From contig MGPQ01000002.1 in NCBI GenBank assembly GCA_001797465.1, positions 32,410 to 96,409 on the forward strand: 64,000 nucleotides of DNA, given 5' to 3'. Source of the stretch: Deltaproteobacteria bacterium GWB2_55_19 (GTDB lineage: Bacteria; Desulfobacterota; GWC2-55-46). This document shows positions 507 through 2,148 of this stretch, one piece after another (the first letter of the stretch is position 1; each line of letters opens with the position of its first letter). The notes under the pieces were generated by a model, which did not search any database, was not told the origin of the DNA, and saw nothing but the letters and a program-made list of their open reading frames with translations. A program made the translations under genes and the position numbers.

Positions 507-782
507 ATGACAAGGAAAAAGAAGGCCCTGGAAGGCGCGTGTTGCGCGCCTGACGCGAAGGGGGCGTGCAGGGTGGATTCCATCATAACCGTTGACGAGC
601 GCGGCCAAACGGTGCTCCCCAAGGAACTCAGGGAGAGGGCCGGGATAAAGCCCGGCGATAAGCTCGCCGTGGCGAGCTGGGAAAAAGACGGCAAGATCTG
701 TTGCATAACCCTTATAAAGGTCGAGGACCTCGTTGAGATCATCAAGGACAGGCTCGGCCCCATAATGAAGGAGATGCTCTGA
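507..782 (+). CDS. AbrB/SpoVT (MazE-fold) family DNA-binding protein with an N-terminal cysteine-rich motif; candidate regulator of hgcAB
   Basis: ORF track gives 492..782 (TTG start). ATG at 507 has GGAGG 6 nt upstream. Swapped-hairpin motif VDERGQTVLPKELRERAGIKPGDKL. N-terminal EGACCAPDAKGAC. Stop overlaps the hgcA start (TGATG). Confidence 0.7.
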   Translation: MTRKKKALEGACCAPDAKGACRVDSIITVDERGQTVLPKELRERAGIKPGDKLAVASWEKDGKICCITLIKVEDLVEIIKDRLGPIMKEML

Positions 783-1858
783 TGCCGGTGGAGAGAGTTA
801 AGAAGGTCCCGTGTTGCGGACCAGAGAGCTCGTGCTGTCCCCCGCCAAAGGCCCCTCGAAACGTGACGAAAGTCTCCCCGGAATGGACCCTCTCCGATTA
901 CATCGGAGAGATAAGGTGCCGCCTCGGCTCGTTCAGGATGGTCTACAAGGTAAGCCCCGGCCTCTACGCCATAGGCGAGCCAGACTCGAAGTCAGACGTA
1001 TTGGTGTCGGCCAACTACAAATTGAGCTTAGATATCCTCCGGAAAGAACTCAAGGGCCTCAACGCGTGGATACTCGTCCTCGACACAAAGGGCATAAACG
1101 TCTGGTGCGCGGCCGGCAAGGGGACCTTCGGGACAAATGAGCTTGTAAAAAGGATTCAAGAGGAGAGGCTCGAAGAGCTTCTCCTCCACAGGCGCATCAT
1201 AGTCCCACAGCTCGGCGGGCCCGGCGTCAAGGCGCACGAGGTGAGAAAAGAGACCGGATTCAGGGTCTCATACGGGCCTGTGGAGGCAAAGGACATCCCG
1301 GCATATATAAAGGCCGGTTACAAGGCGACGCCTGAGATGAGAAGGGTCGCATTTGGCGCAATTGACAGGGTCGTCCTTACGCCGATGGAGCTCATACCAG
1401 CGGCAAAATGGTATCTCGTCTTCACCATCCTAATGCTCGCGTTCTTCGGTCTATCCGCAAAGGGTTTTAGCTTTGACAACGCGCCCGAAGCATACCCATT
1501 CCTCGCCCTGGGCATTTTATCCGTCCTCTCAGGCGGCCTTTTTACGCCAGTGCTCCTGCCGTATATACCGGGAAGTGCCTTCGCCATAAAGGGGTGGATA
1601 ACGGGGCTCGTTGTAACGATTGCGACTTTGCTCATCGGCGGCATAAGCCTGCCGACCCCTCTTTTCATCGTTTCGCTCGTCTTCTTCCCGCTCGCATCCT
1701 CGTACATCGCGCTCCAGTTCACCGGCTCTACGACGTTCACCTCCATTTCAGGCGTCAAGAAAGAACTTAAATACGCGCTCCCGATCTACATAGCCGGCGG
1801 AGCCGCCTCCATCGCCCTGCTCGCCGTGAACAAGATAATGGAGGTCGGCATACTATGA
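782..1858 (+). CDS. hgcA: Mercury methylation corrinoid protein HgcA
   Basis: Cap-helix motif GINVWCAAGKGTFG. N-terminal corrinoid-binding region followed by about 5 C-terminal TM helices. Start overlaps the upstream stop; ATGA overlap with hgcB. Confidence 0.9.
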   Translation: MPVERVKKVPCCGPESSCCPPPKAPRNVTKVSPEWTLSDYIGEIRCRLGSFRMVYKVSPGLYAIGEPDSKSDVLVSANYKLSLDILRKELKGLNAWILVLDTKGINVWCAAGKGTFGTNELVKRIQEERLEELLLHRRIIVPQLGGPGVKAHEVRKETGFRVSYGPVEAKDIPAYIKAGYKATPEMRRVAFGAIDRVVLTPMELIPAAKWYLVFTILMLAFFGLSAKGFSFDNAPEAYPFLALGILSVLSGGLFTPVLLPYIPGSAFAIKGWITGLVVTIATLLIGGISLPTPLFIVSLVFFPLASSYIALQFTGSTTFTSISGVKKELKYALPIYIAGGAASIALLAVNKIMEVGIL

Positions 1859-2148
1859 AGTATCTGAAAAATGTCTCCACCCTCGGATTAAACTACGCCC
1901 TCTGCACGGGTTGCGGCAGGTGCGCGGAGGTCTGCCCCCACGCGGTATTCACAATAGAAAACAGAAATGCCGCCATAGTCGACAGGAACTCCTGCATGGA
2001 GTGCGGCGCCTGCGCAGGGAACTGCGAGTTCGGGGCGTTGACGGTCGGCTCCGGCGTCGGGTGCGCCTCAGCGCTCATAGGCGGGATGATAACGGGCAAA
2101 GAGCCGGTCTGCGGGTGTTCCGAAGGGAATGACAGCGCGTGCTGTTGA
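1855..2148 (+). CDS. hgcB: Mercury methylation ferredoxin HgcB (2x[4Fe-4S])
   Basis: Two CxxCxxCxxxCP motifs (CTGCGRCAEVCP, CMECGACAGNCE), internal Cys (VCGCSEG) and C-terminal vicinal CC (SACC). Start is a 4-nt overlap with hgcA. Confidence 0.9.
   Translation: MKYLKNVSTLGLNYALCTGCGRCAEVCPHAVFTIENRNAAIVDRNSCMECGACAGNCEFGALTVGSGVGCASALIGGMITGKEPVCGCSEGNDSACC

Follow-up and report, generated by a model that had tools for sequence, protein, structure and literature searches.

A 64,000-nucleotide (nt) stretch of the genome of Deltaproteobacteria bacterium GWB2_55_19 (contig MGPQ01000002.1), referred to here as the window, carries near its start two overlapping genes that a preliminary description had assigned to the mercury-methylation pair hgcA-hgcB. 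We asked whether these genes are a genuine hgcAB pair or one of its corrinoid-protein relatives, what else belongs to their operon, and how the operon might be controlled. The locus is almost certainly a canonical, intact hgcC-hgcA-hgcB operon with a bona fide hgcAB pair, preceded by a gene for an AbrB-fold protein, HgcC, and a tandem repeat that is a likely candidate for its operator. All coordinates are positions in the window.

HgcA belongs to the mercury-methylation family

The hgcA gene (782-1858, forward strand) encodes a 358-amino-acid (aa) corrinoid protein of mercury methylation. We compared the protein with NF040863, the curated NCBIfam equivalog model for HgcA, which it matched with 401.1 bits against a cut-off of 275 (E = 3.4e-120) over profile positions 1-324 of 325, corresponding to HgcA aa 28-352. 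The product of the following gene passed the HgcB equivalog model, NF040864, with 114.7 bits against a cut-off of 99 (E = 1.3e-33) over profile positions 1-93 of 93. With E-values of this size from the hidden Markov models (HMMs) and scores above the curated cut-offs, a chance match is excluded for both proteins. The profile search that the preliminary description had proposed thus came out in favor of its assignment.

The cap-helix signature GINVWCAAGKGTFG was read directly at aa 104-117 (1091-1132, forward strand). Within it lies NVWCAAGK (aa 106-113), with the cap-helix cysteine at Cys109 (codon TGC, 1106-1108). This motif is among six high-stringency cap-helix motifs for calling true hgcA genes (PMC10087281), and it fits the pattern N[V/I]WC[A/S][A/G/S]GK with the strictly conserved cysteine that is Cys93 in Pseudodesulfovibrio mercurii ND132. 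The offset of +16 between Cys109 and ND132 Cys93 agrees with the published domain limits. When the window protein was aligned with 23 homologs of 55-83% identity, 82 columns were invariant across the 24 sequences; among them were N106-G112 and a stretch within the last membrane helices. The 358-aa open reading frame (ORF) with the cap-helix signature and conserved cysteine is therefore as it had been described. By analogy with ND132, Cys109 is predicted to be the lower axial thiolate ligand of the cobalt.

Three parts make up HgcA: aa 1-27 form a Cys-rich N-terminal tail, aa ~28-190 the corrinoid-binding domain, and aa 201-355 a membrane domain of five helices. Its Kyte-Doolittle hydropathy rises only past residue ~200, with maxima between aa 205 and 350. 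An AlphaFold2 model made from the 24-sequence alignment (mean predicted local distance difference test score, 78.5) has a beta-alpha-beta N-terminal domain and C-terminal helices at aa 201-223, 231-257, 267-285, 292-314, and 324-355. Hydropathy and the AlphaFold2 model thus support five transmembrane helices in the membrane domain, and they bear out the earlier reading of a soluble N-terminal region followed by about five such helices. We then compared the model with the Protein Data Bank (PDB) using Foldseek. The top match was 9a0b_A, the published integrative model of ND132 HgcA (E = 1.7e-18, 322 columns, 36% identity), followed by the corrinoid domains in corrinoid iron-sulfur protein (CFeSP) structures 2ycl, 4c1n, 2h9a, and 4djd, with root mean square deviations of 2.2-2.9 Å. 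A sequence search of the PDB found no experimental HgcAB structure.

The kinship with CFeSP raises the possibility that the protein is instead a paralog of the CFeSP gamma subunit of acetyl-CoA synthase (AcsC/CdhE). Pfam would allow this, showing only PF03599 (CdhD), at aa 56-175, and no other domain on HgcA. The only PDB sequence matches are also CFeSP chains, to whose corrinoid-binding domain HgcA aa 56-179 align (phmmer, E = 1.5e-08), and an identical protein is named "acetyl-CoA synthase subunit gamma" in GenBank. However, HgcA scored only 67.4 bits against PRK04165, whose cut-off is 306, and matched only profile positions 323-445 with aa 56-178. It has no N-terminal [4Fe-4S] or TIM-barrel part and carries the five-helix membrane domain instead. 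Counting the offsets of the phmmer alignment places Cys109 opposite the Thr at position 374 of CFeSP chain 2h9a_A, and it is this Cys-for-Thr replacement that sets HgcA apart from CFeSP (PMC7305189). No acs or cdh genes were seen nearby among the ~40 large window ORFs screened, and the downstream ferredoxin passes an HgcB-specific model and has both Cys70 and the CC tail described below. A CFeSP paralog was one of the outcomes named beforehand as overturning the hgcA call; by HMM cut-off and domain architecture, we consider it exceedingly unlikely. The example offered for that outcome, a CFeSP/AcsC protein with NVWCASGK, was mistaken, since NVWCASGK is an accepted HgcA motif and CFeSP has a Thr and no Cys at that place.

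The Cys-rich tail of HgcA (aa 1-27, encoded by 782-862), PCCGPESSCCPPP, lies outside the HgcA HMM and contains two vicinal CC pairs. At least one CC pair ahead of the corrinoid domain was present in 17 of 24 HgcA homologs. The public protein OGP25449.1 (331 aa) starts 27 residues later and drops the tail. The CC pairs may handle mercury or thiols; we found no literature on a Cys-rich N-terminal tail of HgcA.

HgcB has the cluster motifs and cysteine tail of its family

The hgcB gene (1855-2148, forward strand) overlaps hgcA by 4 nt (ATGA) and encodes a 97-aa ferredoxin with two [4Fe-4S] cluster motifs, C17xxC20xxC23xxxC27P28 and C47xxC50xxC53xxxC57E58. Toward its C terminus, an internal VCGC supplies C86 and C88, and a terminal SACC supplies C96 and C97 as the last two residues. 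In ND132 HgcB, the cluster ligands are cysteines 20/23/26/30 and 50/53/56/60, Cys73 is essential, and the tail pair is Cys94/95 (PMC7305189, PMC11588087). All nine cysteines of the window protein up to Cys70 carry numbers exactly 3 lower than those published for their ND132 counterparts, and Cys70 (in GVGCASAL) is therefore the equivalent of Cys73; it lies 13 residues past Cys57, just as Cys73 lies 13 residues past Cys60.

To gauge conservation, we extracted 78 HgcB sequences from next to hgcA. The eight cluster cysteines, Cys70, and Cys86 were invariant in all 78; Cys88 was present in 72 and the terminal CC in 74. The gene order is similarly stable, with hgcB directly after hgcA in 77 of 80 genome loci.

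The preliminary description had the length of this ferredoxin, the 4-nt overlap, the two clusters, the VCGC, and the SACC tail right, all of which can be read in the sequence. It had also named the absence of the CC tail as grounds for abandoning the pair, and the tail does end in C96C97. Its list of features overlooked the functionally critical Cys70, however, and it gave the ND132 tail pair as Cys95/Cys96 where the literature has Cys94/Cys95.

A second alternative is membership in the fused HgcAB-like group, or in some other hgcA-like lineage with nonmethylating cultured members, since NF043039 gave HgcA a secondary match of 194 bits and HgcB one of 52.6 bits. Both scores fall below the NF043039 cut-off of 285, whereas against the models for genuine HgcA and HgcB the proteins scored higher, and above the cut-offs. 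Moreover, the two proteins are encoded by separate ORFs with a stop codon and a 4-nt overlap, and the cap-helix motif is canonical. We give this alternative almost no credence.

hgcC, hgcA, and hgcB form a three-gene operon

Directly upstream of hgcA, on the same strand, lies hgcC (507-782), which encodes a 91-aa AbrB/MazE-fold protein that matches Pfam MazE_antitoxin and scores 117.6 bits against NF040962, "HgcAB-associated protein HgcC" (cut-off 70). Its start is the ATG at 507, with GGAGG at 497-501, 5 nt ahead; public gene calls also give 91 aa. The hgcC stop codon (TGA, 780-782) shares 1 nt with the hgcA ATG. Given this 1-nt overlap and the 4-nt overlap between hgcA and hgcB, the three genes are translationally coupled.

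A sigma-70-like promoter, TTGACC-17 nt-TATAAT, precedes hgcC at 439-467 (forward strand). It matches the consensus at 11 of 12 positions and is the only promoter-like site in 1-2700. The −35 hexamer is TTGATC in a strain variant of 98% identity, and a TTGACA/TATAAT-like pair stands at the equivalent place in most hgcC loci. We infer that hgcC, hgcA, and hgcB are cotranscribed, probably from this promoter.

The upstream boundary of the operon is a terminator-like GC-rich hairpin at 383-410 (unstranded) with A- and T-runs on its sides, which follows a cytidylyltransferase-like gene at 36-308 and provides terminator-like sites on both strands, at 392-408 (forward) and 400-385 (reverse). Downstream, the operon is bounded by the convergent glnA gene (2613-4025, reverse strand), accompanied by glnB and plsY. 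The terminator of glnA, a 16-bp GC-rich hairpin at 2557-2592 (unstranded) flanked by an A-run and a T-run on opposite sides, is the only plausible terminator downstream of hgcB. The operon is thus hgcC-hgcA-hgcB, three genes and nothing more. hgcAB had been called the functional core of an operon; the pair does sit in one, but it comprises hgcCAB only, and the large ORFs screened yielded no further mercury-related gene.

We found the closest species-level genome in NC_groundwater_376 (JACPGB010000024.1), whose HgcA is 81% identical. This relative has hgcCAB between the same flanks, with a CTP-transferase-like gene upstream and glnA, glnB, and plsY downstream, and its nucleotide identity to the window across the operon is 80%. 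Both promoter hexamers are identical in the relative, and the 383-410 hairpin is kept.

This comparison bears on whether hgcAB here could be an inactive remnant, nonfunctional or never expressed. The organism is uncultured, which would leave room for such a remnant. Against it, neither ORF is disrupted, each is full length relative to its profile, all invariant family residues are kept, and the GC content of the operon matches that of the flanks. The retention of the operon and its promoter between the same flanks at 80% nucleotide identity also indicates purifying selection. We regard decay of the pair as very unlikely.

Horizontal transfer of hgcCAB was considered and rejected: the operon's GC content, 0.555-0.58, is similar to that of the flanks, the relative has the same flanking genes, and no mobile-element genes were seen among the ~40 large ORFs screened.

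The spacer of ~400 nt between hgcB and the glnA hairpin (2149-2556) does not align with the relative, in which the hgcB-glnA intergenic gap is 227 nt compared with 464 nt here. A repeat element or RNA was suspected in this spacer (TCATCGCGAGCGGAGCGAAGC). The spacer contained no internal repeats, had no second copy in the window, and gave no Rfam match, and the idea was dropped.

Proposed mechanism and weight of the assignment

Gene integrity, family membership, the full set of diagnostic residues, domain architecture, and conserved synteny are all observed at this locus. For cofactor binding and catalysis, we infer a mechanism by orthology from work on ND132 (Cooper 2020, PMC7305189; Zheng 2024, PMC11588087). 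HgcA is membrane anchored, and HgcB is its dedicated two-cluster ferredoxin, whose two all-Cys [4Fe-4S] clusters would reduce the HgcA corrinoid cobalt to Co(I). S-Adenosylmethionine (SAM), not methyl-tetrahydrofolate, would then methylate the cobalt to give CH3-Co(III), with the Cys109 thiolate as the lower axial ligand, and the methyl group would pass to an Hg(II) bis-thiolate, giving methylmercury. In ND132, methylation of the corrinoid by SAM, the Cys-on ligand, and methyl transfer to the Hg(II) bis-thiolate are described in PMC11588087. The flexible Cys tail of HgcB (C86, C88, C96, and C97), together with Cys70, would pass Hg(II) in and CH3Hg+ out, in line with the shuttling by the HgcB Cys tail and Cys73 proposed in PMC7305189.

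All tested organisms with unfused hgcAB methylate mercury (PMC10087281), and "probable Hg methylator" is therefore a fair description; by this analogy, the organism is a probable mercury methylator. The pair marks this uncultured bacterium from an aquifer as likely to produce methylmercury, a neurotoxin.

Several points weigh against this assignment. The organism is known from metagenome-assembled genomes (MAGs) alone, and HgcAB expression is typically very low (PMC11588087). No corrinoid-biosynthesis or uptake genes were seen among the ~40 large window ORFs screened. The equivalences with ND132 residues are drawn from published residue numbers and the Foldseek match to 9a0b_A. The cap-helix segment of HgcA (aa 105-115) was modeled with low confidence, as expected without the cofactor. 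Finally, the residue after the second cluster motif of HgcB is Glu, not Pro, an objection softened by the finding that position 58 is Pro in 28 and Glu in 20 of the 78 HgcB sequences.

HgcC and a tandem repeat suggest how the operon is controlled

Directly past the −10 hexamer of the hgcC promoter, and ahead of the ribosome-binding site, lies a tandem 9-bp repeat, CTGATTATT CTGATTTAT (469-486, forward strand), which is a likely candidate operator for HgcC. We searched both strands of the 64-kb window for the pattern C[AT]GA[AT][AT]N3C[AT]GA[AT] and found only this one occurrence. Among the 80 genome loci, hgcC was the gene immediately 5′ of hgcA in 21. The repeat was present upstream of hgcC in 15 of these 21 loci, 28-56 nt away, whereas all 58 hgcA loci without hgcC were devoid of it.

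An independent set of metagenome loci (L087 to L166) consisted of the best 80 of more than 575 matches to the HgcC alignment. The repeat was found in 58 of the 77 nonduplicate loci, at 6.7 per kb compared with 0.0145 per kb elsewhere in those loci. In the alignment of HgcC orthologs, the vicinal pair C65-C66 ("CCI[TA]L") was invariant and Cys21 nearly so, in addition to the AbrB-type core. Judging from these sequence patterns, HgcC probably binds the tandem 9-bp repeats at 469-486 and thereby represses its own promoter.

We then looked at which gene follows the HgcC homolog in the 71 metagenome loci with enough downstream sequence. It was arsM in 36, hgcA in 27, and a gene for a ~138-aa membrane protein with HHH/CPxC in 5; the 27:36 ratio of hgcA to arsM may be biased, as the sample was ranked by similarity. 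The arsM genes encode a ~275-aa arsenite methyltransferase (NF008823, 357.8 bits, cut-off 263). The AbrB-type proteins encoded ahead of arsM score 115-123 bits on the HgcC model NF040962, and the arsM-linked homologs share with the hgcA-linked ones both the operator-like repeats and the three conserved cysteines. Contrary to what its name implies, then, the HgcC family is not specific to hgcAB neighborhoods.

The conserved cysteines, the repeat, and the association with arsM fit a Cys-based, metal(loid)-responsive AbrB-type autorepressor common to mercury- and arsenic-methylation operons. Such a regulator would parallel the one in ND132, where hgcAB is under an ArsR-like regulator that responds to arsenic. 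We tentatively suggest that HgcC is a new type of thiol-based metal(loid) sensor-repressor with an AbrB fold, and neither a relic of a toxin-antitoxin system nor confined to hgcAB. It would bind CWGATTAnT repeats overlapping the transcription start, be released by As(III) or Hg(II) on Cys21/Cys65/Cys66, and control hgcAB and arsM operons in Nitrospirota, in Desulfobacterota-like bacteria, and in other anaerobes. This scheme is speculative, and we consider it rather unlikely. If true, it would place hgcAB in a shared arsenic/mercury methylation regulon. Beyond PMC10349881, we found no relevant work on HgcC with hgcA, and none on AbrB-type regulators of arsM, in a literature library that was incomplete.

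The link to arsM raises another explanation of the pair itself: the genes are genuine hgcAB orthologs, but mercury methylation is a side activity, and the selected role concerns another thiophilic metal(loid), or methyl transfer, in connection with arsenic handling. In keeping with this, hgcAB gives cells no protection from mercury (PMC7305189), the hgcAB regulator of ND132 responds to arsenic, and the HgcC family stands ahead of both arsM and hgcA with shared repeats and cysteines. These arguments are purely associative, however, and the metagenome proportions come from the possibly biased sample of the best 80 matches. HgcAB is not known to have another substrate, the chemistry of the purified enzyme fits Hg(II) (PMC11588087), and no ars genes adjoin hgcAB in the window. 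A side activity is a genuine possibility, though not the probable one, and mercury methylation remains our preferred account of what the pair does.

In the relative with 81% HgcA identity (locus L086, JACPGB010000024.1), we observed an extra gene at 4547-5407 of that locus, between the cytidylyltransferase-like gene and hgcC. It encodes a 286-aa class-I SAM methyltransferase that is 31% identical to the ArsM core, without the ArsM Cys motifs, and is absent from the window.

The HgcC regulator, which is the less-studied part of the locus, and its candidate operator are the only lead worth following here. A Cys-bearing AbrB-type regulator common to hgcAB and arsM operons, with a recognizable operator, would give a testable handle on the control and purpose of hgcAB.

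Public copies and the rest of the window

We compared the first 6858 bases of the window (1-6858) with public sequences. They are 100% identical to DMSP01000018.1 (GCA_003455015.1) and to JGI contig 3300025013, and 98-99.7% identical to groundwater metagenome contigs. Proteins identical to those of the operon are public as HAO92653.1 and OGP25449.1, HAO92652.1, and HAO92654.1, from "Deltaproteobacteria bacterium" MAGs that include GWB2_55_19. They are named "acetyl-CoA synthase subunit gamma," "hypothetical protein," "ferredoxin," and "AbrB family regulator," the first of these names arising because Pfam shows only the generic CdhD domain and ferredoxin domains. Keyword searches of older public annotations would miss this likely methylator.

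Published reference libraries and trees already include HgcA sequences from MAGs of comparable aquifer sites, and the protein collection holds at least 7999 HgcA homologs. The pair here is thus of a known kind, and public databases already contain its sequence. Assigning it to hgcAB leaves current understanding unchanged, the system being well characterized and having thousands of homologs.

Outside the operon, we screened ~40 large ORFs of the window, which encode two-component systems, chemotaxis, cyclic di-GMP, FtsK, LolA, ArgRS, and similar functions. No mercury, arsenic, Wood-Ljungdahl, or mobile-element genes were seen among them. Two observations are unrelated to hgcAB. A DUF2249-hemerythrin fusion and a DUF362 protein into which a 2x[4Fe-4S] domain is inserted are encoded at 26705-27382 (reverse strand) and 31602-32714 (forward strand), and the ORFs at 23649-24986, 28034-29813, 47969-49066, and 50014-51120 have no Pfam match.

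Comparison with known systems

The locus resembles that of Pseudodesulfovibrio mercurii (Desulfovibrio desulfuricans) ND132 in its two-gene hgcA-hgcB arrangement. Its HgcA shares with the ND132 protein a CFeSP-like corrinoid domain, a cap-helix cysteine (Cys93; here Cys109), and a five-helix membrane domain, and in its HgcB the two [4Fe-4S] motifs, the counterpart of Cys73 (here Cys70), and a terminal Cys pair recur. Identity to ND132 HgcA is only ~36%, however, as judged from the structural alignment. Unlike the ND132 proteins, HgcA here has a 27-aa N-terminal tail bearing two CC pairs, and HgcB has a longer tail with an extra CxC. The upstream regulator also differs, being the AbrB-fold HgcC here and the ArsR-like ArsR2 in ND132. 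Compared with HgcA and HgcB from groundwater "Deltaproteobacteria" and Nitrospirota MAGs, the window proteins show no difference of substance.

The CFeSP large subunit (AcsC; 2h9a, 2ycl, and 4djd) has a Rossmann-like corrinoid-binding domain homologous to HgcA aa 56-179. Unlike HgcA, it has an N-terminal [4Fe-4S] domain, a TIM barrel, and a Thr under the cobalt, and it lacks a membrane domain. CFeSP works with methyl-tetrahydrofolate in the synthesis of acetyl-CoA; HgcAB relies on SAM.

An AbrB/MazE/PrlF-like gene upstream of hgcA has been reported mainly from archaea and was read as a toxin-antitoxin component (Zhang et al. 2023, PMC10349881). The 91-aa hgcC of the window likewise sits directly upstream of hgcA. 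Unlike the gene in that report, it is bacterial, and no toxin gene is present. It also departs from that account in its three conserved cysteines, in the 9-bp tandem repeats that accompany it, and in belonging to a family that stands at least as often ahead of arsM.

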